From the NCBI GenBank assembly GCA_958009085.1, contig OY253676.1, forward strand, positions 744,001 to 808,000: 64,000 bases of DNA, written 5' to 3'. Numbering within the stretch: the first letter of the stretch is position 1; each line of letters opens with the position of its first letter. Positions 18,886-41,444 of the stretch are shown piece by piece. Made by a program: the position numbers and the translations under genes. A model generated the notes under the pieces. That model was not told the origin of the DNA. It did no database searches and saw nothing but the letters and a program-made list of their open reading frames with translations. Source of the stretch: Protoeuglena noctilucae (lineage: Eukaryota).

Positions 18886-20248
18886 TCAAACAGCGCCCAT
18901 TGCAGCGGGCTTGGACGTCGGGCCTTCGTCCATCATATCGGCATCCTCCTCCGTCAGGAGCTTGCCGCTCTTGGATTTGAATAACATGGCGCTGAGCGGG
19001 CGGACAGTGACCATTGCCGTGCAGCATTACCACACAAGATGACCACCACAGACCAAGCCCAGCACAGCACAGCGCAGCAGAGTATGTCAGAGTATTGGCG
19101 AAGGAACACAGAGAATCGCGGTATCCATCTCACCGGAGGTGGCCGTGGGAGTCGACGCGCAGAGACGCCTCGAGCGTGCGCAGCGACGGCAGGGGCTTGT
19201 TGAACGCCAAAATCGTGCTGTCGCCCTGCCCCTCAACCAGCTGGCTCTGCACATGGCGGCACAGTCGAGCTACTGAGCCAGCAGTAATGCACTATGAATC
19301 CATCGTCAGCAGATGCAGCCCACAGCATACTTGGGCAACCCTCTGCATGCTTGGACCCCACATGTCACATGTCAGACTCGCCTCAAAGAAGCACCCTCGT
19401 GGGAAGTCACTGAGGCGCCCAACGGCCTCGGGGCGGTGCGTGGCGAAGACGAGGGCGTGCTCGTCGGCGTCGAGACCCCAGTAGAAGTGCGTCTTGCCCT
19501 GAGAGCTGCGTGCGGCCAGGACGTACCCCGCCCCCGCGTCGTAAAGCACGAAAGCGAAGTCGCCCTGCATGGCGGACAGCACGGTCGCCGGCTGATCCGT
19601 GGAGTCCCCTTCCGTGTCCGAAAACCCGCTCCAGTAGAGGTGCTGGACCAGCGCGGCGCCCGTCAGGTCCTGACCGGGCGGGACGTCAGAAATGTCCACG
19701 TCGTAGAGGTCCAGCAGCTCGGGGCCATTCTCAATGCGGCCCTGCGACGCGAGCGTCGGAAGCAGCTCCCGCTCGTGTCATTGCAAGTGAGGGTTAGGGT
19801 AGGCCCTCTCCCAAGTGATGCCGCCGGGAGCCGCAGATGCGGGGAAACCCTAAAACTGCCCGCACCTCCATCAAGACCACGAACTGGTCCCCGCCCTCCT
19901 CGCGGGCGCCCGTCACGAGCTCGTACTGATTGTCCGTGACGGCAAAGGAGGCGTCCGCGAAGTGAACCTCGCGGAGTGGGCGACGATGGGCGATCAGCTC
20001 GGCCAGCTGCGTGGCGACGTCCCGAGGCTCCAAATACTCCTTGAACCCGACGCCCGCGTGAGGACCCTCCTCAGCCTCCATGTCATCCTCCTGACCCTGC
20101 GCCCGGACCGCTCAGCGGGGCTTGGGGCACCAGCGTTGATCGCAAGGTAAAATAACACCCTCCTGGCCGCTGCTCTCACCCAGATGTCCCTGGCCAGATT
20201 TACCGCATGAGGCGGCACCACGGCGGCCTTCCGGACGACACCAAACAT
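18886..20248 (-). CDS. Wali7/TSJT1 (aluminium-induced, DUF3700, Ntn-fold asparagine-synthetase-like) protein
   Basis: LSAMQGDFAFVLYDAGAGYVLAARSSQGKTHFYWG, FPRGCFFE and LRVDSHGHL are family motifs. There is no N-terminal catalytic Cys (starts MFGVV). Confidence 0.75.
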
Positions 20249-21196: not shown

Positions 21197-24100
21197 TCAG
21201 ATGGGTAAAACTCTGCTCGATGCCATCCTCTTGCCCGAAGCTGACGCGCCCTCGCGCACCGACGCCATGGCCGTGCTCTTGGACTTGCGCCCGGCCACCT
21301 GCGGCCCCGAAGGTGCAGGCCGGGCAGGAAACACCCTCGCTCCGTCCACGGCGTTGTGCGAGAGCCACCGCCGGCCACGGCTCGACCCGCTCGCCAGCGC
21401 CTGGGCCTCCAGCTTGATCTCGTGCCTCGACTGGAAGTCACGCATCCGCGCGATGTCTACCGACACGCGCCTGCGCTCCGGCGTCGACGTCGCGGTGGCC
21501 CGCGACCTCCGGCTGCCGCTGACCATGCGCGTCAGCACCCCCGGGGTCGCATGGCTCGAGTCCCGCAGCAGGCTGGCCTGCCGACCAGACCTGCTCGGGT
21601 CCGCCGCGCCCTGGTCCAGCATCCGCTGCGCCGCGCCCCGCGCCCGCTCGCGCACCGGCCCCTTCGGCAGCCGCGTCTCGCACAGCCGCCGGGAGAGCTC
21701 GAACAGCGTGGCCTGGAATGACACGCGCCCGCCCGGCAGCACGGGGATGTGGAGCGCAGCGACGAACTCGAGCATTTCGTGCGGCGGGGCGCCGCGCGGG
21801 ACCCCCAGGGGCGGTCCCAGAGTCACCAGGAGCTCCTCGAGTTCCTGCGTGCCAACGTAGCCCGAGCCGTCGTCGAGCGCGGCCCAGCGGTCGCGGAACC
21901 GCTCCACGGCGGCGTCCGTGACGACCCACGCCTCGCGCTTGAGCGTGAGCTCGTACGTCTCGATGATGACCGACGGCAGGAGCTGCAGGAGGACCATGGA
22001 CACGCACACCACGAAGGCGCAGAGGAAGGGCGCGGCCCAGGGGCTGCCGCACCGGGGCTGGCCGCGGCAGCCGTTCCCGTGCGTCATGTCGCGCATGAGC
22101 GTGCTCCACTCGTCGGCGGTGGCGACGCGCAGCAGGGTCACGAGTGCGATGCCCAGGTGCTCGAAGTTGGCGTGCTCGTTGAGGTCGCCCCCGCGGGCCT
22201 GGAGGCCGAACGCCTGGACTGCCACGTACGCAAACGCGAAGAAGACCACCGCGAGCACCGCCGCCACGTTGCCGAGGGCGGGGAGGGACGACCCCAGCGT
22301 GGCGAAGAGCATGTGCAGGCCACGCACGCGGCGCACCACGCGCAGCACGCGCAGCAGGCGGAGCAGGCGGATGGCCTGCAGGACGCCCTGCGCGCCGCCG
22401 GTCGACAGAGACAGCGTCAGAGCGCCGTCAATCACGGACACGGCAACCACGGCCACGTCGAACACGTTCCATCGCGATCGGAAAAACGGGACCCAGCCAT
22501 ACGCCGTCAGCTGCGCGACAGGGAGAGGTGGAGTTGACGTAAGTGGGTGAGCGGGGGCGGCTTAGCGAGGATAGGAAAGCGGGGGGTGGCACAGCGGGGT
22601 TGGCGCAGCAGACGGGAGATTGCATATGACACAGGTCGTAAGCACCATCCATCCAGCACAGGACAGAACCCGTGGCCTGACACCGGCAGAGTAGACAACA
22701 AGGTGATCAGGCTCACCTTGAGCGCCAGCTCTGCCAGATACACAGCGGTGAAGGCCATGTTGAGGCGGTCCAGCAGCGTCTGCCGTGCCGCGCCCATGCC
22801 CCAGGTGGCCGACGCCATGACGGCCACGTTTGCCAGAATGGCGACGAGCATGAACGTCTCGGTCCATGGCGACAGCACGACGCGGCCCACCCACCGCACG
22901 AACGGCGACTTGGACTTGCGGGGCGCCACCTGCGGTACGGGGGAGGGATGTGCAGATGGTCGAAACGCGCCGTGCTACAGACATGCTATGTGCGTATCAA
23001 CGACGGACCCACGGTGGTGAACGATCGCGCAATAACGATGCTGTCAGGCCTGGCGGCATGTCTGCACCCGCACCACTCTCTGTTACATCACTCGTTACCG
23101 TCAGCCCAGACATTCCGGTCCACGCGAGCGCACCTTGGGCCCCGTGGCATGGAGCACTGCGATGGTCTGGACCCACTCATGCTGTCGGGCCGAGAGCGCG
23201 CCAACCCCGGTGGCGTTGGCCTTGAGTTGCAAAAAGGACGAGAAGACGACACCCACGAAGAGGTTGAGCAGCGTGATGGTCACGACCATGGAAAACGCGA
23301 TGAAGAACACCAGGCCCATATGGTTGGACCCCGGTTGGGGCTGGATGCCCACGCCCCTCGCCGCCATGAGGTTATCGAGCGTGTCGCTGTACCCATCAAA
23401 CGTCGACATGACGAACAGCGACAGCACCGCCTGGAGCACGTTGTCGAAGTTGAACTGGGCGTTGGTCCACTCCCGCGGCAGCACGTTGCCCGTTGCGGGG
23501 TCTTGGTAGGCGCCCGTGCACTCGGATTGGGTGGACACGGAGGCGTCGTTGCAGCTGTAAAACTGGCCGCCGAAGAGCTCCACGCCCACCTGGGGTCGAG
23601 ACAGGGTGAGGGGCGATGAGCGGGGTTCGGATATCGTTGGGTTACGGTAGCGACATGCACATGCAGGACTGGGGCAAGCGTTGAGATGGATTTGCAAAGC
23701 CATTAAGGCGCGGCACCGGGATGGATATGGCAAGCACAGCTGGTAGCGCGGGCGTGGGTCGCGGGTCGGCGCAGTAAGACAAAGGCCGGCGGCGGCGGCA
23801 GGGGCGTGACTCACGATGGCGAATATGGCGAAGAACATGGCCAAGACAAGCGTGACATGGGACATGGCCGCGATGGACTGCACCACGCTCTTGAGCACCA
23901 GTTGCATTCCGGGGCTCAGCGCCAGCAGCCGCACGGGCCGCAGGGCCCGGAAGGCCCTCAGCACGCGCACGGCGGGCGAGTGGGGTGCGACAGCCTCCGC
24001 AGCCACGCTCACGGCGGAGGTGAGGACGACCGTGAGATCCATTACGTTCAGCCCGCTGCTGAGGTACCCCCGGAGGGTGAGGGCGATGATCTTGATGGCC

Positions 24101-27100
24101 GCCTCTGCTGCGAAGACCGCCGTGACGACACAATCGGCCCACCGCAGGGCCACATAGAGGGTCGACAGGGGAGACAGCGAGGGGCGGTCGAGCGCCATCA
24201 GAACGCAGTTGCCTGCGGGAGGTGACGGAGATGACGGGGAGTCAAGTGGCGGCACATGTGGTGCGGGCGGCAGGGCCGGTGGCGACTGCGGCCATGCACA
24301 CTGCGGGGCTGGGAGCTAGTAGCTGCGCAACGCTCACCAACGATGACGACGGCGATGGATGCCGTGAAGGTCGGGCTTTGGGCGATCGCCGCGCATGCCC
24401 TCCGCACCCAGCTGTGGGGCCCCAGGCAAAGGCACGAGTTGGCCAGCTCTGCCACCGACGCCGTGGGGCCGGACATCGGGCCTGGGCTGCCCTCGCCGTC
24501 GTCAAACGCCTCAGCCTCTGCCTCCGCCGGGCTCAGCAGGTCCTTGGTGGCCAAACCGCGCCTCTTGTTCACGACTGTCGCGTTGTGCTCGCTCGCACCT
24601 TGAAAGCGCGCCTGCTTGGACCACGCCTTGCGCGCCTCCTGGAGCCGCTGCCTCTGCAACGCGGACGAGGGTGACGGTGTGGGTGCGCGGGTGACAAGAC
24701 GGCGTGGGCTGGGCAACATGAACGCGTGGGCACAAGGGCGATGTGGGCCAGGGCCGTGACTGACATGACATCGTATAGCACGACTGATGTGCTGGGCCCC
24801 TTAGTGCCACGCCTCACCTCTCTCCGCAGCCGCTGAAGCTCTTCCTCGATCCGCGGCAGCCCCTTCTCATGACCCCGGGCCACCGCCTCGCGCAGCTTCA
24901 GCGCCTGGGCCTCTGCCCCGAACGCCAACGACATGCTCCGCGGCTCCACCAGCCTCGCTGGGCCCGGCTCCGGTCTTGGCGAGGCTGTGGGGCGGGCCCG
25001 CACGCCCGCGTTGGCACGCGGGTGGTCGACCGCAGCTGCACCCGGGCCGCCCCTCTCCACGGTGTGAAGGTTCGTGTGGGCTGAGGCAGTGCCAGGCTGC
25101 CTCGCCCTTGCCCTCATGACCTGGGCCACCGTGACGCTGGCCGACCGGGGAGCTTCCACGCGCGCCGCTAGCGCTACGAGGGTCCGTTCCCGGTGTCTGT
25201 GCGGCAGGAGGTCCGCGTCGGGAGTCGCGAGGTGGGGGGCGTCAGCGGGCGGCGCGTGGGCCGTGGCGGCGTGGGGCGATCGCAGACGCTGAGGGTCCAG
25301 GGCGCTGTCCCGGCGCTCGGGCTGAAGGAACGAGCCCAGCCTCGTGGCTCTCGTGAGGGCGAGGGTCATGGAGGCCAGCCGGTCGATGTGCAGGTGCATG
25401 GAGGGCGGTGCGGGGTAGGCAGCATCGAGAGCAGCCCCGTCGTGGTCGGCCGGGAGAGCGGCAGGCGGGTGGGACGAGCCCCCGTGCGCGCTCGCCGCCG
25501 CAGAGCGTGAGTGCGCGGAGCGAGGTCTCGGCGAGGCCCGGGACTCTGCCACAGGGCCGGCGGGGTGCATGCGAGGCGCATCAGTATCGGTGGCAGCGGT
25601 GGCGGTGGCGGCTGTCGCAGCCACCATCGTATCGGCAGCTGTCGCATCTGCAACGTCCGTGGCGTCCGTCACCGTGGCCGTGGGCCCATGACGATTCGCC
25701 TCCATCAGCTTTGCTGCGCCCAATGCCGGGTCCGGAGAGTCGCCATTGCATGGCCAGGCCTCGTGGGCGGGAGTCTGGACCGACATCGTCCTGCTGGCGG
25801 CCGTGGCGCGTGGCTGGTCGGTGAACGACACGCGGCTCAGTCCGCTGGGGTGCGTAGCGCGGGTAGGGGCGATGCGAGAGGGGTTCCGGGAGGGTGCGAT
25901 CGGCGCCTGGGCCCCACTGGACACGGTGGGTGAGCTACGGAAGACCGGCTGCACTGCACTCTCGCGCCGCTTGGTCACGGACTTCGCGATGGCAGAGTCG
26001 GTGACGGGCTCGACCCCGGCACCTTGCGTGTACGAGGGATGCTCGACTTTGGTGGACCGGCTTTCGCCAGGGTCAGTGGACCTGCCGGGTCCCTGCAAGC
26101 AGTGTAAGGCGATGGGAGGGGCGATGGCGGGGAGATTGGTAACATTGATGGACATGGGTGTCCCATGTGTGAGGAGATGGCAAGGTGGCATCGGTGGGAA
26201 ATCAGCTAACGCCGTCTGGGTATGTACGTCCCCTGCGCCGTGCAATCGGATCGACGCTGTCACAGGCAGTCGTGTGCATCGTACTATTGGCGCTGTCTGT
26301 CGGCATGCTGCGTCTCGCCTGCAGGAGCGCCTGGAAGGAGTGGAGGATGACGGCGACGAAGAGTGTGAGGCATACGATGTGCCCGAGAGTCACCCAAGCC
26401 ACGAAGAAGGCGGCGGCCCACCACCCCTCGGCCTGGATGTACGCGTGCATCACGTCGTTCCAGTTCTCCAGAGTCATCACCTGCAGAAGCGCAGCATGGG
26501 ACGAAGCGATAGCCAGGCAGCTTGATCGCTTGCGTGCGCCACGGTCCTCGCAGTTATGTGCCGCCGCTCGCCTGGAAGGTGGTCCGGAGTGCCGAGAGGA
26601 AGTCGCCATAATTGGTGGAGCTGCCAAGGTCGCCTGCAGGGCCCAGGAGGCGCATCCCGGCAGCCGCGAAGGTCAGCAGGAGAGTGCACAAGAGGACGGC
26701 AGCCGCGGAGAGAGCCCCCAGGGACGTCAGGATCACGTTGCCGATGCGGTGTAGGGCGTCGAGGTAGCTGCGTGCGGGCGGCAGGGGCGCAGGTCATCGA
26801 CTGGTGATACAGATGCTGGCACTCGGTGCGTCGAGGTGGGTCGTTTAAGCAACACAGCTGACGGTCTGTTCATATCGAGAACACGATCCATGACCCTGCA
26901 TGAGCACCCTGCAAGCGGCTCTCCCTGTCCCCAAACACAGCGGCTCTCCCTCTACCCAGTCGCTGCCGAGTTCCGCACACCCCTGCGCTCACCGGAACAT
27001 CTTGAAGACGCGCAGCACCCTGAGGAGCCGCAGGATGCGCACGACGCGCAGGATGGACAGCGAGTGGCCGCCCGTCTGGCTGAGCGTGACGGCCACGTCG

Positions 27101-29821
27101 CAGACCGACAGCGCCACGATGGCCAGGTCGAACACGTTGCCGCCGTCCGTGAAGAACGCGTGCGCGCCCAATCCGTGCAGCTTCAGCGCCGACTCGGCCG
27201 CGAACAGCGCCGTGAAGACCGCGTTGCCGATGAAGATGGCCGTCTCGTATTCCCTCGACATGCCGTAGTGGCTGACGGCCAGAAGCGCCACGTTGCCGAT
27301 CACGAGGGCCAGGAAGGCCACGGGGAACCACGGCTGGTCGATGACGCCCAGCGCCCACACCTGCGACTGCAGCCAGGCCTGGCGCAGCCACAAGGGCACC
27401 CAGCGGGAAGCGGCGAGGTCGGACTGGGACATGGTTTGGTAGAACTGCAGCGACGCGCGCGCGGAGGATGCCCGCTGGCTGGCTGCCTTGACTGCCCTGG
27501 CCTCGACCTGCGCAGGAGACGAGTGGGTGTGGTGGTGAGTGCGTGGGGGCATGCGTGTCGCCATGTGTCCATGCACGCGCGCTTGCTTGTGGCGAGATTG
27601 CAGACGGTGCAATGGTCGGCGGCGACACTGTCCATGGCATGGATTACGCCCCTGTCATCAGCGTGGCTAACCTGTTCCATACTTGGCCGCCATGCTGATG
27701 CATAGGACGCCGAGGCCATCATACGGTCCTTGGTCATCTTGGCTGGCCCCGCCGTCAGGCTCAGGGCCGAGTGGAGAGTGCCAGAAACGTGCACCGCTGG
27801 CGAGGCTGCGGCCTCGGTCGGCGCGATGTCCCCTAGCTTGATCTCCAAGACACCGAGGAGGATGTTGATCACCAAGTAGTACCCCATCAGCACGAGCAGC
27901 ACGAACCACAGCACGATCGCCCAGGACGTGCCGTCCACCACGCGGTACATGATGAAGCTCCACCCCGCGAGCGTGGCCTGGGGGTGCACGAGCAGGGACG
28001 CGTCAGCACCGGCATTGTTACACGAGCCGAGCACCCACGCGTCATCCAGGGTCCACTCCCTCACCATCTGAAAGGTCGTGAGCATGGCGACGCCCAGGTT
28101 GTCGAAGCTGGGGCCCGCTTTGGGGTCGTCGGCGCGGAGGGCGCACACGGGGAAGTCTGCGGGACACTTGCGCGCGCCCCCGCATCCGAATTCCAGCGGG
28201 TGCGGGAGCTGGTTTGTTTGTTCGAAGGTGAGCGTGATGGGATCGTAGCAGTGGCGGTGGAAGGCGCTCTGGAAGACGTCGCTGAGCGAGCTGACGGAGA
28301 AGAGCAGAAGCACGAAGGCGAGGAGCGTGAAAACGTGGCCGATGAGCGACAGGCCCCGGGTGCACGCGCTCAGGATGAAGTGCATGGCGGGGATGCGGGA
28401 GCCGAGGCGGAGCACGCGGAGGATCCTAAGAGCCTGCAGGGCCGACACCACGCGCGCGGCCGACGAGTCGCGGTCGGCGATCGCGAGCGGCAGGTAGCCC
28501 AGGACCACGAGGGCCACGTCCAGGGCATCGGCTGGGCTGCGAAGGTAGGGTAAGGGCCCTCCGCGCCAGACGAGCAGTGCGAGGAGCTCGGCGGTGAAGG
28601 CAGCGTTGGCGGCCACGTTCGCCCAGAAGAGAGACCTGTGGGGGTGGCGGTGTGGGTGGCGGCGAGGGTGGCGGCGAGGGTATGCAATTATGGCATCATG
28701 GGCCTCCAAGCAACGCGTCCGCCTTAGCAAGAAAAGCGAGCATGCGGGAGATGTGAGAGCAACTCACTCGTTCCACGGCGAAGCCGACGGCTCTGAGGGA
28801 CGGTACATGCACAGAGCGCAGCAGTTGCCAAGAATGACGATCGCCATGGCCCCTTGGACCGCCCCCTGGACCCAGGGGTGGGCCAACACCGCACCGGGAC
28901 CGTGGACGGACGCCCACGCAGAGTCCGCCCCGACCCGGGACGCCGCAAGCGTCGAGGCGCCCTCCCCGGGAGTCGGCCCGTCCGACGATTTGCGGGGGTC
29001 GCTGACGGTGCGGCGGACCAGAGGCCCAATCATCAGGATGGACCCCAGATCGGCGCCCCCACCGTCACGCCCACCCTCGGGATGCTGCGCCCCGTCCCCC
29101 ACCCCTTCCTGGCTCCTCCGCGCCTGGGGCGTGCCCGTACCTTCCCCCTCCGCGTCTGTTTCTGGCACGCAAGAGGGGATGCCCGCAGGCACGCGCACAC
29201 GCCCCGCTAACGGCCGCTGGTCGAACACGATCTTGCTCCTGGTCACCCGCACGAGCTGCCTGCCGCTGGCGTTGCCCGGCGCGGTGCCGGGGGCGGCGTC
29301 GCTGCCCCTCATGGTGTCCGCCGACGCGGCACTGGGGCGGTCCAGTCGTATCGCTCTCGCGACCGGGTCGGCAAAGATGTCCTGGATAAAAACGCCCTTC
29401 TCTATCAGTCGCAGCGAGGCGCGGCGGACGGTCTGGAGCCCTCCCAGGGATTCGACCAAGGGACCATCCGCGGACACGAGGAAGCGCGGCGCTCGGTGCG
29501 ACCGCGCCTCGGGCCTGCGGGAGAAAGACGCGATGCCAATGATCGTGAGACGCGGTCGTGTGCGCGCGATCGTGAATGCGCAGTTCATGTATGCGGCGTG
29601 ATTTTGGATTGTGAGAGAGGGCGCAGCTGCGTGGCACACCTGTGCTGCCCGGATGGCATGGGGCTGCTCGACCAGGGCTCGATGCGCCCATCGCTGCCCG
29701 TGTTCGGCACATCGGCATCGCCATGGCGGGCGCTTGGCTCGGCGCCGCGCTCGTTGTCCTCCCACGCCTGCATCTGGGTGCGCAAGGCCTTGCCGGGAAG
29801 GACGCCTGACGACGTGGGCAT
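21197..29821 (-). CDS. Four-domain voltage-gated cation channel alpha subunit (Cav/Nav-like)
   Basis: Four S4 segments (ALRILRVLRL, LRVVRILRLLRVLRVFK, LRAFRALRPVRLL, IRLLRLLRVLRVVRR). Four P-loops (TLAGW, TLENW, TFDGY, TADEW). EF-hand-like C-terminus WAALDDGSGYV...LGPPLG. Long II-III linker. Start uncertain. Confidence 0.92.
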
Positions 29822-30642
29822 CAGCGCGTCATCAGGCGTGGGGCGCCCGGGCTCGCCCCCTGCACAAACGAGCCGTGCGGAGCAGGTGTTGTTATCCCGC
29901 CGCGTGCACGCATCGCGAGCACCCGCAACTCAGGTCAAGAGCATAACTGCCCTGGTGATCACCTGGCCCGGCTTCTGTCATCGTGGCAGTCCTCTATCCA
30001 TCAATCCAATAGTCGACTTGGGCCCGGTAATGCTCGGGCAGTGGGACGGCACCCAGTGACGGGGTGCCCGTCACGTGGCAGGGGCAAATCCCTGCCACCT
30101 CGCCTGCAGGACACGACACGGTCGACCGCTTCGATCACGATCTGCCAACAATACTAGGAAACGGCTCCACACCCAGGCGCGCGCAATGGCGTGCTGGGCG
30201 AGGGCCCTCGCGTGAGAGGTCTTCGAGGCGTGGTGGTCCCAAGCGATGACGGCTCGGTTGACCCTCCCCACCCGAACTCCGTACACCATTTGATCGTTTT
30301 CGTCCACTCCGCCGGAAGCGCGGATGCGAGGGGCCTCGGGACGCAAGCGGCCAAACACTCACCGTCAAACGCGCCCGCACGGTCCTCCCGACCAGCACCC
30401 AATAATTTTAGTCACTTAAACCCATAGACCTTGCGCGCAACGGGTCGCCGTGATCCGCTTTGCTCGGTCGGCCCGACGCCACTGACACAATTCGGGCATC
30501 AGGGCAATCGGCCGGATCGTCCTCCTGTGCCCATCCTCGTGCGTTCCAGTTCGGCACGTAGAGAGGCACCGGTCGGTAGTCGGACGATGATGGTGTAGGA
30601 CCCTGGGCCCGCCGGCCACCAAGCGATACCTGCCGCGCAATC

Positions 30643-33600
30643 ATGTGCCGCCTTATGTGCTACACGGGCTCCCCCATCCTGCTGGCGGAGGTGCTCACTT
30701 GGCCAAAACGGTCGATCATCAAGCAGAGCTACGATGCGCGAGAGCGTCTGCTCGACCCCACGCTGCCCCAGCACCTGGGGCACGGCAACCTCAACGGCGA
30801 CGGCTTTGGGATCGGGTGGTACGGCGAGGTCATGCATTGCAAGCATCAGGTGAAGGTTCCGGCGCGCGCGTCGGCCGCCGGGAGCCAGGCTGGGCGAACG
30901 CACGGCCCCATGAGTGCTGCGCCAGCGCTGCTCCCTGCGCTGCGGTGCACCCACAGGCGTCCGGATGTACGCTTGTCGTAGCTTTCTGTTATAATGTCAC
31001 TGCGGCTGTGAGAGTCGAGGCGGAGGGGGACGCATCGTCGCGCACTTTCCACCCTCCTGACGTGCCGCAGAGCATCAACCCCTGCGTGTTCACCTCGGTG
31101 ACTCCCGCGTGGAACAACCTTAACCTGGATCGTCTCGCGAGGAAAATTGTGTCGCCTCTGATCTTCGCGCACGTCCGGGCCGCCTACCCGGGCATGCCCG
31201 TCTCGGAGCAGAACTGCCACCCCTTCCAAGGTGCGCGCGCGCGACCCCGCCCCACCGCCGGCGCGCGGTCCTGCAGACGTCATGCATGCGCTCAGCCCTA
31301 CTCGGGGAAATTGCCACGGAATTCTGCGCCGCGTCGAGGCGCGCGTTCTCCGTGCGCACGTTGGGCTCGTGTCCCCGGCGCGCAGTGGGCCCCTACATGT
31401 TCATGCACAACGGCGTCGTGGGCGGGTTTGCGAAAATAAAGCGCGCGATTCTCGGGGAGCTCTCCCCCGCGGCTTTCGACACCGTACAGAGCTTCCATTC
31501 CGACTCCGCGGTCGTCTTCTCCCTCTTCCTCCACCATCTCGGCATCTCGCCGGGCGGCGACGTCCCCCGGCGGCCTGCAAAGGAGGCGAGTCGCGCACGC
31601 CAGCCGCCGCTGCTGCGATCGGCCTCCGCGGCGCGCCCTGTTCGGCTTGCAAAGTGCTTGCGTCGCTTCACGCGCCCGCCCCGCCCCCGCAGATGCTGCG
31701 GGCGATGGAGGACACCATCGCGTGCCTTTTGCGCATCCAGCGCGAACACGGCGTGGCCGACCAGCTCTCCCTGATGAACTTCGTCGTCTCCGACGGAACG
31801 AGCGTGGTTGCCACGCGGTTCGTGTGGCCTGAGGGGTCCGCGGCCTCCTCTCTTTACTACGCGGAGGCGTCCGGGTTCCACCGCATCGATGAGCTCGCCG
31901 AGGGGGCGGGGGAGAGCCCCGCGGGGTGCCGTCCGCCGGACGAGATGGAAGCCGAGGCGAGCGTGCGAGCATGCGTGCGTGGGTCACAGTGGGGCAGCGT
32001 GGGGTATGGGAGCTGAGGCCAGCTAACCACTTTCACAGTAGTATCACATACAACTAGTATGTATTGTCGCGTGCGGTCTTAACTTGCCATCCCCGTCCAG
32101 TCCCGTGTCCGTCACACCTGCTGCCTCACCACCTCCACCACCCCCGGTGTTCCCCACCTGCAGTACTGCATCTTGCGCCACGGCGATAAGTGCTCCCGCA
32201 TGGCCATCATCGCCAGTGAGCCCATCACGGGATCCTCGCTCGATTGGATTCCCGTGCCCACCAACCACGCCCTGGTGGTGACCAAGGATGAGGCGGGCAT
32301 CGTCAATGTCATGCGATCGCCCATCGAAGTGCAGGGTGAGTGACAAGGGGTGGTGGATGGGTGGGTAGGAAGCTGGGCGAAGTGCAGGGTGAGCGACTGC
32401 GGGTGGAGGGTGGGATGCCGGAAGATGTGCAGGGTGAGCGACGAGGGGTAGTGTGGGTGGGATGCGGTTGAAAAGCATGTATGCCGACGATGCCATGCCG
32501 TACAACTCAGGATTCACTCCGAAGTCCCGCAGCCGCATGTGCTCCATCCCCACCTCAAAGCCACCACTTCACTGCCCCCAGAGCCCCACAGCAGCCGGCA
32601 TACCGACACCGCCCTCTGCCTGGACGCACTGGCGGAGGGCAGCTCGACCCCCTCGCACGCCTGGGTGCACCAGCGGGGCGTGGCGGCGCATCTGGGCAGG
32701 CGGGGCCGCGCCAGGGGCAGGGGCGGAGGCGCGGGACGGGGGCGGGGATGCGCGGGCGACGAGGGGGCGTGGGAGGGGCCGGGGAGCCTGGGGGCGGTCA
32801 ATTTGGTGAGGAGAGAGAAGAGTGGCTGTGCGGGGTGCTTGGACCTGAACCCTGGATCGCTGCTTCTCAACTAACTTCCCCTGTGACATCACATGTACAT
32901 TATACATGTGATACTAAAGCAGAGTGCCACTCTCCTCCCGCTTCACTCTCCCCAGGCCTCCTCCTTCCCCACCGAACACATGATGATGAGCAGCAGCGTG
33001 GCGAGTGTGGCCGTGTCTGGCAACCCCAGCCGGCGGACATCCCTGGACTCGTCCCATTCCTACCTCCCGGCCGTGACGCGGACGGGATTCGAACTCGAGA
33101 CCCCTGCGGCGACAGCGGCGGCGCCCGTCCTGCCAGGCGAGCCGGCGAAACGCCAGTGCCACCGTACACACCCCTGCGCCCAAGCAGGCCGACCAGAGCC
33201 GCCGACTCATCAGTCACTCCATCCGTATCTGCTGTTCGTCAGTTTCCATGATTGTAATCCTATAATATGCTCATATTATCGGCCATTCGCATAATGCATA
33301 AAACATCACAAGCTTCCCTTGACCCCACGCAGGCGACCCCACCTGGCCCGACGACCCCAGGGCCTCCCTCTCGCCCCACCTCCCCGACCCCATCCCAGAG
33401 AACGGCGTCCCCGCGGCCCCAACCCTCTCCCACCCCCGCGCCCTCCCTGCCAGCGCCCTCGCCGCGCAACTGGGGGAGCGGTCGCGGTTGGGCCAGGTGC
33501 AACTCCGCCCCTCAGCTCTGGGACCCCCGGGGTCACTTGGCGATGGCTCTCGCCCCGGCAGTGGCTCTATCCCGCCCTGCACGCCGTCGCTGTCGCTGAA

Positions 33601-36600
33601 TGAGGACGCGAGCCTGGAGCGCCACAGCCAGGCCGTGCAGTGCCTGGCGCTGCATGGGTGGTGCCTGTTCTCCAGCAGCATGGACTGCACCATCCAGGCG
33701 AGTGGTCGTGTCGTGTGTGAAATGATCCACTCATCATAAGAGCTGTCTTTTGTCAAGTGGCATGGGCTGTACGATGCAGGTGTGTCTACTGCATTCGCAG
33801 CACGTTCTCTCTTTCCTGCAACCCCTCAACCCCACCCTCCACACACAGGTCTGGGACCTGCGCACCCTGTCTCACGTGGCTGAGCTTCGTGGTCACTCCA
33901 TGCCCGTGCTTGCGCTGCTGGTGCGGGACCCCGTGCTGCTGTCGTGTGCTGGGCGCACCGTACGGCTGTGGTGCCTCGACACCTTCCAGTGCCTCAAGGC
34001 AGTGGTGAGTGCGTGGGTGATTGGGGCTGTGATTGCGAGTTTGGTGAGTGCTTGAATGGGCGTGACTGTGGCTGCTGTGGCTCGAGTCCCATCAGCTCCG
34101 CCCACGTTACGCCTCTCCCATCCCCTCCGCAGTCCCTCGAGCAGCCCAAGTCGCGTTCCATGGCCATGTCGATGGCGCTGGGCGAGGACGGGACCCTGTG
34201 GGTGGCCCGTGCTGATTCGAAACTGGAGAGGTACGCGTTTGAAGTCGGCAACGACCAGGGCGGGGAGTCGCTGGACAACGAGGCGACGGACGTCCGGAAG
34301 CCGGAGGTGAGGCGGTGTTGGGAGGGGTGGGGTGGTAGGAGGGGTGGGGTGCGAGGGGTGGTGCGAGAGGGAGGGGTGAGAGGGGTGGGGTGGTAGGGGG
34401 AGTGGGGTGAGAGGGGTGGGGTCGGTGATCACTGTGCGGAAGCCGGAGGTAAGAGGTTTGGGTCTGAAGTGGTGGGATGAGAGGGGTGGGGTGTCGGGTG
34501 CGATGAGCAATGCGAGAGAGGGTGACCGATACAGAAACTAGCAATCCACTTTTGACCCACGTCAGCTTAGTTGTCAGCTTAGTTGCTACTTTCAATTTTC
34601 TCATCTCTTTCCCTCTCTCTCCACCGCAGTGCTTCACGTCCCACTCTTCCCCGGAGTCTCACGCGGGGGCGGTCATGTGCGTGCGTGAGGTGGGGGCGCA
34701 CGTAGTGACTGCCAGCACCGACTCGACGGTCCGGGTGTGGGACAAGGCGACGCTGGAGCACGTCAAGACGCTCAGGGGCCACCGGGGGGCGGTGCTGGCG
34801 CTGGCATGCGTGGGGCCGTACGTGCTGAGCGGAGGGAGGGACAACGCGATACGGGTGTGGGACATGGAGGCGCTGTGCTGCCGGAGGACGCTGGTGAGGG
34901 AACGGAGGGCGAATGTTGTGCATGATGAAAGTCTCATCATCAACAGTGTCCATGGTGTAACGTCCTAAGGTCCTATCCCTACCCTAACCCTAACACCGCC
35001 CACCTCACCACCACCACCACCACCACCACTCTCTCTCCCCCCCACCGCCCACACACCACCACCACCACCCACTCTCTCTCCCTCCCCCGCAGCTCGGCCA
35101 CCGCAACGACGTCCTCCACCTCTCCGGCACCCCCTCCCCGAATGGCCCCTCGCGCATGTCGGACGGCTGGCTGGCGAGCTCCGGCGTACCGTGCGCCTCG
35201 CCCACCACGCCCACCTCCCCAGCCCGCCTGGGCGACGCGTCGTTGTGGGAAGAGGAGCCCGCGCACCTCTCGTGGCTGTTCACGTCCACGTCTGCCGATG
35301 GCACGGTGCGGCTGTGGAGCGCACGCGACTGGACCACTTTGCACGTCTTCGCCTTCGACGAGCCCAACCCGCAGGACGTCGGTGAGTGGGGGTGGGGGTG
35401 GGGGTGCGGGTGCGGGCGTGGGTAGTAAGTGTGGGTAGTGAACGTGTCTGTTGACTCAGTCCTACCTTCCAAGTCCACATCTCTCCACATCTCTCCACAT
35501 CTCAACCCCTCCCTGCACCCTCCTCCAACCCCATCCCCTCTCTCCTCATCCCCAGGCCTCTTCCTGTCCGCCATCGTCGGCCCCACCTCCGTCATCACCG
35601 CATCTCACGACGGCACCATCCGGCTCTTCCACTCCCACGCCCTCATCGCACCCGCGGAGCCCGGCCCGCAACATCCCCACGCCCACGCCCATGCTCATGC
35701 TGCCCACACCCACGCTGCCCACGCCAGCGCGGCTCAGCCTGCCACCAACTCAGCTCAGCTCGCCAACGGCACTGCAACGGCCACCACCACTGCCACCGCC
35801 CGCCGCCCCCGCACCAATGCCTCCCAGAGCCCCGCGGCCTCCCCCCGCGTCCCGACCGGCGCCGCGCTCCCTCAGCCGACCGGCGACATGCGCCTGTCCG
35901 GTGCGGCACGCGATATGCGCCTGCAGCAGGTCCTAAAACAGCTGGTGCGCATCCGGTCGGTGTCCCCGGACCCCGCCGCCCGCGACGAGTGTTTTCGTGC
36001 CGCCAAGTTCCTCACGCGGCTGCTGGAGGTGGAGTTGGGTGCGGAAGTGGCGCTGGCCACGCCCAGGGACCCGGTGCACGACGAGGATTTGAATCCGGTG
36101 GTCATTGGGCGCGTGGGGAACTTCGCCAGGAAGGGGGTGCCCACGGGTGAGGGAGGGATGGGGCGGGGGTGGGGTTGCTTAAGGGTGAGGGGTGGGGTTG
36201 CCCATGGGTGAGGGACTGATGGGGTTGTGGGTGGTATGGGGGTGTCGGGTGTCTAAGCATGAGGGATGGGAGATGTTCTGTGGAGTGGGGTTGCGGTCGG
36301 GACGCTTCACAACTACTGCACCATTGTCACTCCTCTCCCCCACCCTTTATTCCTCCTCTCTACTCTCTCATATTCCCCCAGTGTGTTTCTACGGCCACTA
36401 CGACGTGCAGCCCACACACAACTTACCTACTCTCTTCTCCCACCCCTCCAGTGTGTTTCTACGGCCACTACGACGTCCAGCCCGCCCACAGCTCCGAGGG
36501 CTGGCGCCACGCCCCCTTCGACACAACATTGGTGAATGGCTACCTGTACGGTCGCGGCGTGAGCGACAACAAGGGGCCGGTGCTGGGGTTCGTGTACGCG

Positions 36601-39283
36601 GTGAAGGACCTCTTGGATTCCGTGGACGACATCGATGACCTCCCCGTCAACGTGCTGTTCATACTCGAGGTGAGTGAGATGATGGTGGGTTGTTGATAGG
36701 GAAGACGTGTTGTGTATTGGTGGCAGTCATTTGTTTGGCACGTTAGGTGGTCATGAATTGTCATTTTCATCGTATTTCTCCTCTTCATCACCTGTCTCAC
36801 CCCTTCTTACCCCCTGCTAGCTCACCCAATCTCTCATCCCTCTCAACCCCACTCACTTAGTCACTATCCACTCACCGCCTTCCTTCCCTCTCTCCACCAG
36901 GGCGAAGAGGAGACGGGCTCCCGCGGCTTCTCCGCCGCCTTCCAGCGATACCAGCACTGGATGGAGGGCGTGACGATGGTCGTGGTGTCCAACACTTTCT
37001 GGATGGGGGAGCGTGTGCCGTGCGTCACGGTCGGCATGCGCGGGATGATCAATCTGTCCATCGAGGTGTCCGGGCCAAGGCGCGACGTCCACTCCGGCAA
37101 CGACGGGGGGCTCTTCAATGAGCCATTCGCGGATTTGACTAAGCTACTGGCAAGCCTCGTCGATGCGCAGGTGAGAGGGTCACCAGACACCAGTGGGTGT
37201 GGGTGTGGGTGTGGGTGCGGGTGTGGGTGTGGGTGTGGGTGTGGGTGTGGTGGGTGTTGATGTGAAGTCTGGGTGCGCGGGGGAATTGCGCACAACAACC
37301 CTGTTGTTGTGTGCCAGCCGGCCCCACTCACGCCCCGCCCTTTCACCCAAACCGCAGAGTTACTCCACGATCCCCGGGTTCTACGACGACGTCCGCGACA
37401 TTCCCATCGAGTCGATCCAAGCGGAACTGGACGGGTCAGACGAAGTGACGGTGGCGGGGGTGCTGAGGGACCTGGGGGTGGCGTCACTCACGGTGGCGTC
37501 GGACGAAGCAGCCGCAGTGATGCACCGGCGGTGGTGCTGCCCGACGCTCTCCATCACAGACGTGCGCATCAACCCGCGGCAGGCGGGGGCAGACGGGGCG
37601 AGTGGCGGTGCGGGTGCGGGTGCGGGTGCGGGTGCGGGTGCGGGTGCGGGAGCGGGTGCGGGTGCGGGTGCGGGTGCGGGTGCGGGTGCGGGTGCGGGTG
37701 CGGGAGCGGGTGCGGGTGCGGGTGCGGGTGCGGGTGCGGGTGCGGGTGCGGGTGCGGGTGCGGGTGCGGGTGCGGTTGCGGGTGCGGGTGCGGGTGCGGG
37801 TGCGGGTGCGGGTGCGGGTGCGGGTGCGGGTGCGGGTGCGGGAGCGGGTGTGGGTGGCAGTGGTGGTGGGTGTGCTGGGACGGTGTCTTTCGGTCCCACT
37901 CGCTTCTCCGTCATCCCTCGGAGCGTCGTGGGCCACGTGTCGGTGAGGATTCGCGTTGCAAATGCGCGCTGTTGAAACTGCGATGACATGCGCGCATTTA
38001 TGGATGACGGTCATGGCTGTCAGATAGAGATGCCATCTGTTGTCATACATGCATGGATGGTGGTGGTATTAAAACTTATATCTAATTTGACTCACGTCGT
38101 CTGCAGATCCGCTACGTGCCTGACCAGTCCAGCTCCCGCATCATCTCCCGCCTCCACCAGCACATCCAGCACGAGTTCTACAAGCTGCGGTCGCCCAACC
38201 ACGGTGCGTGCATCATGCTTAAGAACGGAGTCCCAATCCACCCGCCCGCTCTCTTCCAGCTCATCAAACACCATCAACCCCACCCCACGGTGCGCGTCAC
38301 ACTCCACCACCCCCACCCCCACCCCCACCACCACCACCCCCATCGCAGTGTGCATCGCACTCCACCACCACCCACCCCCAATCGCCCCCATTGCAATACG
38401 CATCAGTCCACCACTACCGCCCTCACCGTCACCCCCAATCGCCCCCATCGCAGTGCGCATCACCGTGCGGTCGTCCGGGTCCTGGTGGGAGGCCGACGTG
38501 GAGTCTGAGCTGGTGCATTGCGTGGATGCCGCGATTGAGCGCGTATGGGGCCAGCGGCCCAGGCACGTGAGAGAGGGTGGTACCATGCCAGTCACCAGCG
38601 AATTGGAGAACCTGCTCAAGGCACCTGCGGTCCTGGTGCCGTTTGGGCAGGCCAGCGACAGGTGAGAGGGTGTGGGTGTGAGTTGGGGTGTGATTGTGAG
38701 TCTGAGTGTGGGTTAGCCCTGACCCTGCCCACCGCCTCACCAGTCCAACACCTCACCGCGACCCCTCCCTGTCACCCGTCACCGTTACCTCCCCGCCCCC
38801 CGCACCCCTGCAGCACCGCCACCCTCACCGTCACCCCTCACTCTCACCTCCCTGCCTTTGCCTCCTCGCAGCACCCACCTCCCGAACGAGCGCCTGCGTC
38901 TGGTGAACCTCCTCCGCGGCCGCGACGTGATCCGCGAGATGCTCGAGGGCGTTGGGCGACTGGCCCAGGAAGGCGCATTACCCGACCCCCAGCGAAGGGA
39001 CTTCCGGCCACGAGGGGACCTCACCACGCAGTCCGTGATGACGCTGGGGAAGGTAGTAGGGCCCGCGAAGGCAGAGGCGGTGTCGGGGATCTGCGGAGTC
39101 ATTGCGAACGGGTGCGGGGAGGAGTGCGTGGGGAACGGGGCGGGGCGGGGCGGGGTGCGGGGTGCAGGCGCGGGGATAGGCGAGGGAAAGGGCTTGAGTC
39201 GGGGTGGCCACGGGCACGGGTCCGTGGAGCTGGTGTACCAGTGGAATGCGGGGGTGGGCTGCGGGGGTGGCGCACATACATAG
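30643..39283 (+). CDS. Fusion protein: Dug3-like class II glutamine amidotransferase, WD40 repeats and Dug2-like M20 peptidase domain
   Basis: GATase: MCRL (Cys2 nucleophile), NGDGFGIGWY, TPAWNNLNL, FAHVRAA, NCHPF, FMHNG, IASEPIT. WD40: SSSMDCTIQ|VWD, TASTDSTVRVWD, SGGRDNAIRVWD. M20: YGHYDVQPA, GRGVSDNKGP, EGEEETGS, HSG, REGGTMP, GQASD|STHLPNER. About 18 exons join in phase. Confidence 0.88.
37607..37846 (+). repeat. (GGTGCG)n hexamer tandem repeat, 40 units, encoding poly(Gly-Ala)
   Basis: 240 bp near-perfect tandem array with a few GGAGCG/GTTGCG variants, in frame within the M20 exon. Confidence 0.95.
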
Positions 39284-41444
39284 GTGGCGAACGTGGGCGG
39301 GAGCGTGTGGGTTGCGGTGTCAGCAGCAAATGCTGGGGCTGGGTGCCTGGGTCGGGGTGCGGGAGCGTCGTGGGGTGATCCAATATGCGGCAGGCGCTGG
39401 CTACACCTCGGTTGCACGGATCTGACGTTTCATACTGGCGTTTCGATCAGGGCGCTCTTGGCACCCTGCCCAATGTTAACCGACCATAGCGCGTTCTATC
39501 TTCCCATGCTTCTGTCCTTCTGCTCTCGTGTGCTCATCCCATGACACGTCGCAGCCCTGTCGCATGCGTTTTCTGACGCGGCCTCCCTCGATGTTCACAC
39601 TCCTGTTTCACAGCAAGCGCGCCGCACTCTTTGTGAGTTCGAACTCTCTTTCTTCTGAAGCGCGTTGCGAAGGGCCCTCGGCCACCCGCACGTTGTCTTA
39701 CTTGCCGACTCATCGCCGTTTGAAACGCACCGACACCAGCACCAGCACTGCAACGGCATTTGACGACACCGTCTTGCGATCTCTCCTGTTCAGCCATGTT
39801 CCGCGCCCCTGGCCCACACCCACGCCTGTGTCACATGACAGTGAACTACTGCCAGCCCCTCATGATGACATCACGACCCCACCAGCCCCATCAGCGCCTG
39901 CAACCGCCCAGCGCACGTCTGCGTTGGTCATGGTAGCCACCTAGACCAGCCATCGAAGCCCCTTGCAACGACGATGCGATCGACGCGTGTCCGGTGTGCC
40001 GCCTGTCCCACCGTGGGTATCCCATACCCACAGGTGCAGCGGTGGCGCTGGGTGGGTGGGTGCGCTGCATGGCTGTCTCTACTGGTGGGTCAGCGTTGCT
40101 GATGGGCATCCCATCGCCAGGTGGCTATTGATATAGACACCCTGCACTGCCTCTTCGCTACCGCGGTCGCTTGGAATGCGAATCCAGTCGCCCGAAGGTC
40201 GACGGTGGCATCCTGGGCCAACGACCCGCGGGCTCGCCCAGCCCTAATAGGAAGGGAGTTTGTTGCTTGTCCCAGATGTAAGCACGACAAGCCACTGGTG
40301 AGCCGGGCCACCCGCCGCGGTGGGCGAGGCCACGAGAGCGCGGAGGGAGGGAAACGGCGAAGGGGCAAGCTTCATGCAGTCCGTACGCGGCCAGAGGCCG
40401 GCGCCGACACCGCGCAAGGGTCCAGGCGCAGACAACACAACAAACTCAAAAGCCTCGTGCGACTTCCGGGGCTCGCTTGTCGCCCACGACGCTGCTCGAG
40501 GCCACAGTAATGCTGCGCTGTTCAGAGGACGATGCCGCGTTGCCGCATGGTCCGCGAAGGCATCGGGATGTGCAACGCACGCAGCTCGTTGCACGGAATG
40601 TGTGCGAGTTCGTAGGTCGTCGCACAGACTTGGATCCGGCGTTGCGTTAGCGACGGTTTCTGGGTAGGTTTCGCCCGACGCAGCCCCATATCCGCCCTTC
40701 GGTGGCCGCGGCGATGGGTAGTTTGGATCCATTCCATCGGCCAGGTACCGCCTCGCTGCATCCCCGACGAACCAGTGGTCCCCACCGTGGCAGTGCTGGG
40801 CCCGTTGCTCCGTGGCGCACACGCGCCTGGTGGGGGCCGTGCGGAGCGCAGCGCGGGGTCCGGTGTAGACTGCGATCGTTTGTCCGCGTATGGATGTGGT
40901 TGTTTGGTCGAGACTTGCCTCTGTATGCTGCGAGGGTCCTTGTAGTGGCCACCGCTGGCATTGGAAAGCTCCGTTGGTTGTGCCAAGCGAGGCATCTTGA
41001 GCACTTGCGTGCGAGTGGGTGGGGCGTCGGTGGATGTGGTGCGTGGCGAGGCTATGCGAGCCCAGCGCACCTGGGGGTCTGGGCGAGGGCGCTGCCACAG
41101 CCTGTGGCCGCCGGCAGCGGGAGTGGCAGGGGCGTCAAGTGCATGCGGATGCCCTGTGAGTAGAGGATGGTCGCGGGCATGGCGTGGCGCGCTTGCATAG
41201 CTTGTCACTAAAACGAACACACATTGAGCATCGTCGCCCATGCAGATGGATGGTGGCCCGCGGTCGGATACAGGCTGCTGGCTGAGCTGGTGGTGTTCAG
41301 TGGTTACCGGCCGGACGAGGCCCTCACTTTGGGGGAGGCAATCACCCTGTACGACGTCCTGGTGAGCGGGTCGTGGGCAGGCGGAGGATGATGGGGGATG
41401 CTCTTTGACTCGTGCCCTAAGTGGTGGCAAGACCTTCCATCCTT

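Follow-up and report, generated by a model that had tools for sequence, protein, structure and literature searches.

The closest described enzyme system is a two-subunit complex of yeast. In the accessible passages of the papers cited throughout this text, the (Dug2-Dug3)2 complex cleaves glutathione to Glu and Cys-Gly (PMC9804317, PMC6508711), also cleaves gamma-Glu-Met and is cytosolic (PMC7617739), and Dug3p is a class II glutamine amidotransferase (GATase) that is inactive unless bound to Dug2p (bioRxiv 10.1101/2023.02.02.526638). The DUG pathway is called fungal-specific in such passages (PMC9012958, PMC6508711), in agreement with the description given in a first-pass annotation of the DNA considered here. 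For Euglena, one transcript contig has been assigned to 'GSH degradosome proteins', and the accessible part of that paper makes no comment on its architecture (PMC6351624). We analyzed a 64,000-nucleotide stretch of the genome of Protoeuglena noctilucae (contig OY253676.1, positions 744,001 to 808,000; assembly GCA_958009085.1), hereafter the window, in which positions are counted from the first letter. On its plus strand, between 30643 and 39283, lies a gene whose protein carries, in this order, a Dug3-like class II amidotransferase, a linker of about 190 residues, a WD40 propeller and an M20 domain. We consider it probable that this one nuclear gene encodes a 1678-residue, single-chain counterpart of the yeast (Dug2p-Dug3p)2 enzyme. 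The first-pass annotation had interpreted the locus as a single-chain Dug3-Dug2 fusion, and that interpretation is supported by the results described below.

Structure of the gene

The region has a GC fraction of 0.56-0.74 and consists of eukaryotic DNA with intron-broken class II amidotransferase, WD40 and M20 frames on the plus strand. RNA sequences were taken from four metatranscriptome runs (X1-X4) that belong to one study and represent at most three samples. Between 0.27 and 0.49 of the words sampled from window:30500-39500 were present in these four runs; the fraction was 0.99 in four further runs of 'organism A', which are probably DNA of that organism. All 36 of the 36 contigs aligned on window:29500-40500 were at least 99% identical to it (7/7 in X1, 10/10 in X2, 8/8 in X3 and 11/11 in X4).

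The RNA contigs contain 18 splice joints, 15 of which were listed and three of which were read off contig pieces, and each of the 18 fits exactly one GT-AG or GC-AG intron. A first set of junctions broke the frame past exon 12. Shifting the donor of this exon by 4 nucleotides to the GTGAGT at 35382 opened the frame; this donor was chosen because it is the sole option that keeps the frame, and it explains four otherwise unassigned letters of the RNA contigs. The joined exons make up one open frame of 19 exons, 5037 nucleotides and 1678 residues (30643-39283, plus strand), in which the sole in-frame stop is the terminal one at 39281-39283. The ATG at 30643 is preceded by an in-frame stop at 30577-30579, and X1 record 1 begins at 30569. 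The features of the gene are as follows.

30569..30642, plus strand: 5' untranslated leader, minimum extent (start of X1 record 1; in-frame stop 30577-30579)
30643..30849, plus strand: exon 1, Met-Cys start and NGDGFG of the class II amidotransferase (joint 30846>31068 in X1 and X2; GT-AG)
31071..31230, plus strand: exon 2, GATase core with TPAWNN, FAHVRA and NCHPF (RNA joints, translation)
31386..31585, plus strand: exon 3, GATase oxyanion motif MHNG, and SDS (pieces of X1 record 1); followed by the GC-AG intron 31586-31692
31693..31956, plus strand: exon 4, GATase (joints 31583>31691 and 31954>32162 in X1 and X2); followed by a GC-AG intron
32164..32335, plus strand: exon 5, end of GATase with the ASEPIT...DW..VP.N motif (RNA joints, translation)
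32582..32805, plus strand: exon 6, linker exon 1 with an Arg/Gly-rich stretch (joints 32334>32581 in X1 and X2, 32804>32955 in X1)
32956..33136, plus strand: exon 7, linker exon 2 (joints 32804>32955 in X1, 33133>33330 in X1, X2 and X3; GC-AG donor at 33137)
33333..33697, plus strand: exon 8, linker exon 3, with the first WD40 blade from about 33596 (RNA joints, translation)
33849..34004, plus strand: exon 9, WD40 repeat (joints in X1 and X2)
34133..34306, plus strand: exon 10, WD40 region (joints 34003>34132 and 34304>34628)
34630..34893, plus strand: exon 11, two clear WD40 repeats (lengths of contig pieces; Pfam WD40)
35093..35381, plus strand: exon 12, WD40 region (RNA pieces 35092-35376 plus 4 letters; donor GTGAGT 35382)
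35556..36146, plus strand: exon 13, last WD40 blade, His/Ala/Thr-rich spacer, and M20 from about 35921 (RNA pieces 35555-36145 in X1, X2 and X3)
36452..36669, plus strand: exon 14, M20 catalytic core with GHYD and SDNKG (Pfam Peptidase_M20; alignment to CNDP1, CNDP2 and Dug1 chains)
36901..37170, plus strand: exon 15, M20 with GEEE, SNTFW (Asn for the ligand Asp) and HSG (alignment to 4ruh, 3dlj, 2zof and 4g1p)
37358..37942, plus strand: exon 16, M20 lid region with microsatellite (joints 37165>37353 and 37941>38106; open frame)
38107..38203, plus strand: exon 17, M20 (joints in X1, X2 and X3)
38454..38661, plus strand: exon 18, M20 (joints in X1, X2 and X3; 76.8% identical to the relative P0016)
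38872..39283, plus strand: exon 19, end of M20 (His ligand in THLPNE, to about 38968), Gly-rich tail and stop (joint 38658>38869 in X1-X3)
39284..39738, plus strand: 3' untranslated region, approximate (contigs 39269-39730/39738 in X1, X2 and X3)

The nearest relative, P0016, aligns to 38831-39268 in the region of exon 19, and RNA depth is zero at 39776-40142. The first-pass annotation had described one in-phase spliced frame that runs from the amidotransferase through a linker into WD40 repeats and M20. This holds: RNA joints link exons 5, 6, 7 and 8 and continue onward, the frame is open, and the six motifs it had quoted (Met-Cys start, NGDGFG, TPAWNN, FAHVRA, NCHPF and MHNG) are all in the translation. 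One linker exon had been placed exactly (32582-32805) and the other two were off by one base, 32957-33136 being 32956-33136 and 33332-33697 being 33333-33697. The GATase and WD40-M20 parts are covalently joined in one RNA-supported reading frame, and the gene and its domain architecture are confirmed as observations.

Four of the 18 introns (31586-31692, 31957-32163, 33137-33332 and 33698-33848) are of the GC-AG type, with GCGAG at every donor, which is a high share for a single gene. At 31692, where the AG acceptor of intron 3 ends, an unspliced X4 contig (31300-31929) has T for G with a depth of 4.3; the difference reflects either an assembly error or a variant splice site carried in the sampled population. 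Every listed X4 contig is unspliced across introns (for instance 30957-31182, 31300-31929, 32326-32641 and 32613-32892), so the X4 library carries pre-mRNA or genomic DNA of the same organism.

Domain architecture and protein family

Annotated fused proteins from many green algae align collinearly with the spliced model. When GATase exon 2 was used as query, 155 of 156 candidates were found at E values of at most 0.001, and the candidates include proteins of 1150-1850 residues in which GATase, WD40 and M20 families occur together. Against a profile derived from 32 fused sequences the model scored 1352.7 bits, profile positions 1-346 corresponding to residues 1-368 and positions 383-1187 (of 1194) to residues 558-1573. 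Pfam detected WD40 at 52.9 bits (cutoff 27) on window:34507-34965, which holds exon 11, and Peptidase_M20 at 51.9 bits (cutoff 24.6) on exon 14; the open frame with exon 9 gave a weak WD40 match of 17.7 bits, below the 27-bit cutoff. By Pfam and by the profile over residues 558-1573, the window protein has the architecture of Dug2, in which WD40 repeats are followed by M20.

The GATase domain comes first in all 88 of the fetched two-domain proteins, and 53 of the 57 fused proteins in which the N-terminus of the domain is reached start with Met-Cys. Both counts bear out the earlier proposal that the order of the domains keeps the catalytic Cys at the N-terminus. At 1678 residues the window protein is longer than the median fused protein (about 1387 residues for 56 full-length sequences) because of low-complexity inserts.

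Low-complexity coding sequence includes a His/Ala/Thr-rich spacer at 35650-35920 (exon 13) and an Arg/Gly-rich stretch at 32680-32760 (exon 6), both of which lie outside the family profile. An in-frame hexanucleotide microsatellite at about 37580-37870 (exon 16) encodes a Gly-Ala run of about 90 residues in the lid region of M20. At the position of this run P0016 has only about 30 residues, and the counterpart in the model of the Chloropicon protein P0055 appears to be a low-confidence loop (987-1000).

The M20 domain

The relationship of the M20 domain was determined with a careful maximum-likelihood tree of 34 rows and 447 columns, made up of 20 fused proteins, 7 Dug2-type proteins, 4 fungal Dug1/CNDP2-type proteins and 3 bacterial or unnamed proteins. 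The 20 fused and 7 Dug2-type rows are split from the Dug1/CNDP2-type and the bacterial or unnamed M20 rows with support of 99/98. Inside this group the window protein joins P0016 and a Pedinophyceae protein (100/100) within a green-lineage clade (98/98). The comparison group is truly of the Dug1 type, as P0423 matches the solved yeast Dug1 chain (4g1p) with 560 bits. Grouping with ArgE/DapE rather than Dug2 would have spoken against the first-pass reading; the tree instead puts the domain beside fungal proteins of the WD40+M20 (Dug2) type, apart from the Dug1/CNDP2-type and bacterial rows. By this tree, the M20 domain of the window protein is orthologous to Dug2 and not to Dug1/CNDP2 or to ArgE/DapE-like M20 proteins.

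Equivalents of CNDP2 His99, Asp101, Asp132, Glu166 and Glu167 are kept in the window protein, as is the HSG motif. The C-terminal His ligand is also kept, as placed by a MAFFT column, and exon 19 alone gave no M20 match among solved structures. At the position of CNDP2 Asp195 the window protein has Asn1186, and four solved enzymes (4ruh, 3dlj, 2zof and 4g1p) have Asp. Four of the five M20A metal ligands, which we take to be represented by these CNDP2 residues, are thus kept (the equivalents of His99, Asp132 and Glu167, and the C-terminal His) and the fifth, an Asp, is Asn. In the Asp195 column, 70 of 75 fused proteins have Asn and the other 5 have Ser, and all 45 Dug2-type proteins have Asn; of 89 stand-alone M20 rows, 21 have Asp (Dug1/CNDP-like and bacterial rows) and 68 have Asn (algal fragments and a large unnamed group). 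The column of the general-base Glu is replaced in 15 of the 75 fused and 7 of the 45 Dug2-type proteins; this suggests that peptidase chemistry is under relaxed constraint in the clade of Dug2-type and fused proteins. Precomputed Pfam assignments place the M20 dimerisation domain (PF07687) in many fused relatives.

These residues bear on the possibility that the enzyme is bifunctional, with a working M20 metallodipeptidase that takes over Cys-Gly from the GATase site, such that glutathione is converted to Glu, Cys and Gly. The retained His, Asp and Glu equivalents, the C-terminal His and HSG would suit a dipeptidase, and in the relative P0018 the alignment of the full M20 domain extends over about 455 residues, scoring 264 bits with CNDP2 and 229 bits with yeast Dug1. 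The replacement of Asp195 by Asn or Ser, which extends to 75/75 fused proteins and as Asn to 45/45 Dug2-type proteins, argues against it, as do the substitutions of the general base. To our knowledge, yeast Dug2p has no peptidase activity. We therefore regard a bifunctional enzyme as unlikely and favor a single-chain Dug3-Dug2 enzyme that would stop at Glu and Cys-Gly.

The amidotransferase domain

Pfam GATase_4, which has a cutoff of 23 bits, reached 52.5 bits on the relative P0055. On P0141, a fungal protein named DUG3 by its source, it reached 60.1 bits, and the window model is 38.7% identical to P0141 over residues 1-344 (186 bits). An MCR start is present in 33 of the 34 family rows of the set used for the GATase tree, the exception being one annotated N-terminus. 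In alignment A1, which comprises 32 fused proteins, the invariant residues are D51, G52 and G54, H97, R99 and A101, H124, N125 and G126, and D156; M1 and C2 are not counted, because they were a criterion of selection for A1.

Solved EgtC is not a close relative of this domain as judged from the algal relative P0053, which matches 4zfk with 42 bits over residues 1-135 only and 3mdn with 103 bits. The same holds for the fungal DUG3 protein P0141, which scores 34 bits against EgtC chains and finds its best match in 3mdn (131 bits). The first-pass annotation had placed the domain with Dug3 and not with EgtC. Its second half stands on these scores of 42 and 34 bits, and the identity of 38.7% makes the domain Dug3-like; strict orthology to Dug3 is left unsettled by the GATase tree, which is described below.

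The motif ASEPIT...DW..VP.N in exon 5 is conserved across the whole GATase subfamily. Its consensus ASEP..T...DW..VP.N, located at the predicted interface of GATase and propeller, was considered as a Dug2-binding signature and was rejected, because stand-alone homologues from a Planctomycetes bin and from metagenome contigs carry the motif too.

A protein of the same architecture might have a different gamma-glutamyl or amide compound as its main substrate, such as an ergothioneine-type intermediate, on which EgtC acts, or other gamma-glutamyl peptides. The domain has close stand-alone homologues in a Planctomycetes bin and in metagenome contigs, some of which carry automatic 'EgtC' labels, and the yeast complex also uses gamma-glutamyl peptides besides glutathione and is able to transfer the gamma-glutamyl group (PMC7617739, PMC6508711). 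Against such a preference stand the weak similarity to solved EgtC (42 bits), the Dug2-type M20 partner and the fact that the sole characterized enzyme with this pairing of domains degrades glutathione. A different main substrate is in our judgment quite unlikely, and for the window protein we infer hydrolysis of glutathione.

Predicted structure and proposed mechanism

An AlphaFold2 model of P0055 from Chloropicon (mean predicted local distance difference test score (pLDDT) 84.7, predicted template modelling score (pTM) 0.59) has three folded domains, with low-confidence joining segments at residues 332-345 and 648-679. Docking of P0055 residues 1-320 against residues 340-686 with ESMFold2 gave a score of 0.80, and the best of three controls gave 0.00. 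Three runs share at least 95% of the contacts, and the partner has a pLDDT of at least 81. The mark of 0.80 was reached by 51 of 78 solved complexes and by 2 of 108 mismatched pairs; for eukaryotes, 39 of 65 solved pairs that lack a similar older complex reached it, as did 2 of 126 unrelated pairs. The predicted placement of the GATase domain on the propeller face, with residues 231-300 against 363-631 of P0055, supports binding between the two but does not show it. A sequence search of solved structures returned no solved Dug2-Dug3 complex among the best 60 of 433 matched distinct sequences.

We propose that the single-chain Dug3-Dug2 enzyme would work as follows. Removal of the initiator Met would make the GATase Cys residue 1 and the nucleophile. 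The amidotransferase would dock on the propeller face and the propeller would activate it, as Dug2p does for Dug3p in yeast. The M20 part would serve mainly as scaffold and dimer interface rather than in peptidase chemistry, and the linker of about 190 residues would be a disordered segment particular to the lineage. The gamma-glutamyl bond of glutathione, or of similar gamma-glutamyl peptides, would be hydrolyzed to give Glu and Cys-Gly. The enzyme is probably cytosolic, because an N-terminal targeting peptide is incompatible with a free N-terminal Cys.

The linker and the evidence for a single transcript

X1 record 1 (1206 nucleotides) contains the 5' leader and the five GATase exons, continues into exon 6 and ends at about 32710, and the joint between exons 5 and 6 (32334>32581) is present in both X1 and X2. 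X1 record 2 (2761 nucleotides) starts within exon 6 at about 32773, includes exons 7 and 8 and those of the WD40 part, and extends into the M20 exons. The GC fraction at third codon positions (GC3) of the linker exons is 0.83-0.91 (0.91 in exon 6 and 0.83 in exon 7) compared to 0.81-0.97 in the domain exons; the exception is exon 16, which carries the repeat and has a value of 0.67. P0016 is collinear with two of the three linker exons (32581-32757 at 45.8% and 33347-33718 at 36.2%). Residues 369-557, about 190 residues of low complexity, fall outside the profile of the fused family and constitute a lineage-specific linker.

Several observations weigh against a single-chain Dug3-Dug2 enzyme. 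No listed spliced contig runs across 32711-32772, a 62-nucleotide part of exon 6 flagged as a GC-rich repeat that is spanned solely by the unspliced X4 contig 32613-32892, and the contigs, which show presence in RNA, reveal neither transcript ends nor transcript levels. Pfam reported 0 families for each of the five GATase exon pieces when these were searched singly, because the exons are too short alone, and GATase_6 reached 26.8 bits on P0016, just below the 27-bit cutoff. The GATase domain is 37-44% identical to the stand-alone homologues of the Planctomycetes bin and metagenome contigs and 39-41% identical to fungal Dug3-type proteins. In a quick, unrooted GATase tree the fungal Dug3-type rows sit with the stand-alone homologues, across a branch of support 97 from 18 of the 19 fused rows, so the GATase tree alone does not prove Dug3 orthology. 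The fold and docking models are those of the Chloropicon relative P0055, made without an alignment, and the docked partners are two parts of one natural chain. The comparison with yeast was made via fungal orthologues (Serendipita 'DUG3' and Saitoella 'glutathione degradosome') and not with S. cerevisiae Dug2p and Dug3p themselves.

A second interruption of the RNA contigs occurs at the repeat of exon 16 (about 37578-37870), where the contigs stop at about 37577 and resume at about 37871, leaving the repeat itself without RNA cover. The gaps at 32711-32772 and at about 37578-37870 are breaks of the assembler at repeats, and we counted them as no evidence either way. It is highly improbable that the GATase and WD40-M20 parts are made as separate mRNAs and proteins from adjacent genes and that the apparent fusion is a joining artefact: although the spliced contigs leave 32711-32772 uncrossed and are blind to transcript ends, and some public annotations have separate GATase and M20 models on a contig of the same length, probably the same contig, the gap measures 62 nucleotides and lies inside an exon that RNA joints connect to the final GATase exon (X1, X2) and onward in the direction of WD40 (X1), an unspliced contig spans it, the three linker exons are open in frame with coding-like GC3, the full fusion is encoded on single Trinity transcripts of other lineages (seven genera), and both domains are present in 88 fetched proteins.

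Distribution and evolution of the fused protein

Fused proteins are annotated or transcribed in the green algae Volvox africanus, Pleodorina, Chlamydomonas eustigma, Raphidocelis, Scenedesmus, Chlorella, Auxenochlorella, Prototheca, Coccomyxa, Trebouxia, Picochlorum, Chloropicon, Cymbomonas, Bryopsis, a pedinophyte and Chara, as well as in the streptophyte algae Chlorokybus and Mesostigma. Outside the green lineage the fusion was found in the choanoflagellate Salpingoeca kvevrii, the apusozoan Thecamonas trahens, the amoebozoan Soliformovum and the dinoflagellate Gymnodinium smaydae, and in diplonemids and a euglenid (Diplonema, Lacrimia, Namystynia, Entosiphon and 'Hpha', the last with the KEGG label DUG2). 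Single Trinity transcripts encode the full fusion in Salpingoeca, Diplonema, Soliformovum, Entosiphon, Lacrimia, Namystynia and Gymnodinium. The fusion is widespread in algae and protists and is not peculiar to Protoeuglena noctilucae. The literature that we found consisted of fungal, Euglena and unrelated papers, with no prior description of a fused GATase-WD40-M20 form; the fused form is widespread yet apparently undescribed.

When P0055 was searched against 1.84 billion cluster representatives, 145 further proteins were obtained, of which 38 have GATase and M20, 56 have M20 without GATase and 51 have WD40 only. Many of the 56 are 800-1000 residues long with WD40 at the front. Proteins with WD40 and M20 are assigned to the fungi Saitoella (where it is named 'glutathione degradosome'), Ceraceosorus, Neoconidiobolus and Paraphysoderma, and one more comes from Rhodelphis; another carries the gene label 'Clim', presumably for Corallochytrium. 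The split Dug2-type proteins belong to fungi and to two transcriptome or gene sets from protists. Among the named matches there is none from a land plant or an animal; most matches are nameless, so this absence is weak evidence.

In public gene sets some models of the family seem split, with both halves probably on one contig (Haematococcus P0026/P0385, Monoraphidium minutum P0031/P0387 and Volvox carteri P0002/P0389). In other sets the fused protein is labelled 'Cys-Gly metallodipeptidase DUG1'; P0047 belongs with the three pairs to the proteins that show one or the other feature. The split models and the DUG1 labels look like annotation errors, and annotators should be warned that the locus is apparently split in some public gene sets and labelled DUG1 in others.

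The distribution raises the question of whether the single-chain Dug3-WD40-Dug2 protein is ancestral in eukaryotes. The DUG pathway would then be old and nearly pan-eukaryotic, the protein would have been split in fungi and perhaps a few other groups, and it would have been lost in animals and land plants and replaced by ChaC/GGCT or GGP. We consider this scenario evenly balanced. If it is true, the two-subunit yeast complex is a derived oddity and the Asn-for-Asp substitution marks an early conversion of M20 to a non-catalytic activator and dimerisation scaffold.

Irrespective of its age, an RNA-verified green-algal gene adds to the evidence for single-chain DUG machinery across much of eukaryotic diversity. 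As a natural fusion it is a 'Rosetta stone', which lends independent support to the partnership of Dug2 and Dug3, and it provides a one-gene construct for biochemical and structural work. If the sequence-based assignment is correct, algae may have a route of glutathione and sulfur recycling that is missed by pathway models based on GGT and GGCT.

Neighboring genes

Upstream of the fusion gene, at window 21200-28763 on the minus strand, five long open frames with high GC3 match Pfam Ion_trans (up to 156 bits); they look like a gene for a large multi-repeat voltage-gated cation channel. At window 19295-19777, also on the minus strand, an open frame matches DUF3700, an 'aluminium induced protein' family (52 bits), and GATase_7 (27.5 bits). 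It is a second, unrelated gene for a class II amidotransferase-like protein.

Comparison with known systems

Several proteins share one part of the window protein or its proposed reaction. The dipeptidases Dug1p and CNDP2 (4g1p, 4ruh, 2zof) have the M20A fold family and most catalytic motifs in common with it, but the window protein belongs to a separate clade, has Asn for Asp195 and carries a WD40 propeller and a GATase domain in front of M20. Dug1 is not part of the window fusion. Bacterial proteins with a class II GATase domain (3mdn) and EgtC (4zfj/4zfk/4zfl) share the N-terminal nucleophile (Ntn) class II fold and the Met-Cys start; 3mdn and EgtC are stand-alone proteins without a WD40-M20 partner in the chain.

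Arabidopsis GGP1, a gamma-glutamyl peptidase, and Francisella Cgc1 cleave glutathione by the reaction proposed here, which yields Glu and Cys-Gly in the cytosol. Yeast mutants in dug2 and dug3 are complemented by GGP1 (PMC9804317), and Cgc1 has been described in bioRxiv 10.1101/2023.02.02.526638. Both have an unrelated, class I fold with a Cys-His-Glu triad and no Dug2-like partner, and they are analogues rather than homologues of the window protein.

The fused relatives, among them P0016, Pedinophyceae sp. P0023, Chloropicon primus P0055, Chara braunii P0083 and Thecamonas trahens P0225, have the same order of domains and the same catalytic motifs. The exon structure of the window gene is backed by RNA, whereas most other fused relatives are gene models. 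The S. cerevisiae (Dug2p-Dug3p)2 enzyme has the same components as the window protein, namely a GATase of class II whose Cys is N-terminal, a propeller of WD40 repeats and an M20 domain. In yeast these are encoded by two genes and assembled from two subunits, whereas the window gene encodes them as one polypeptide in the order GATase-linker-WD40-M20, to which the linker of about 190 residues, the His/Ala-rich spacer and the Gly-Ala insert of about 90 residues have been added.

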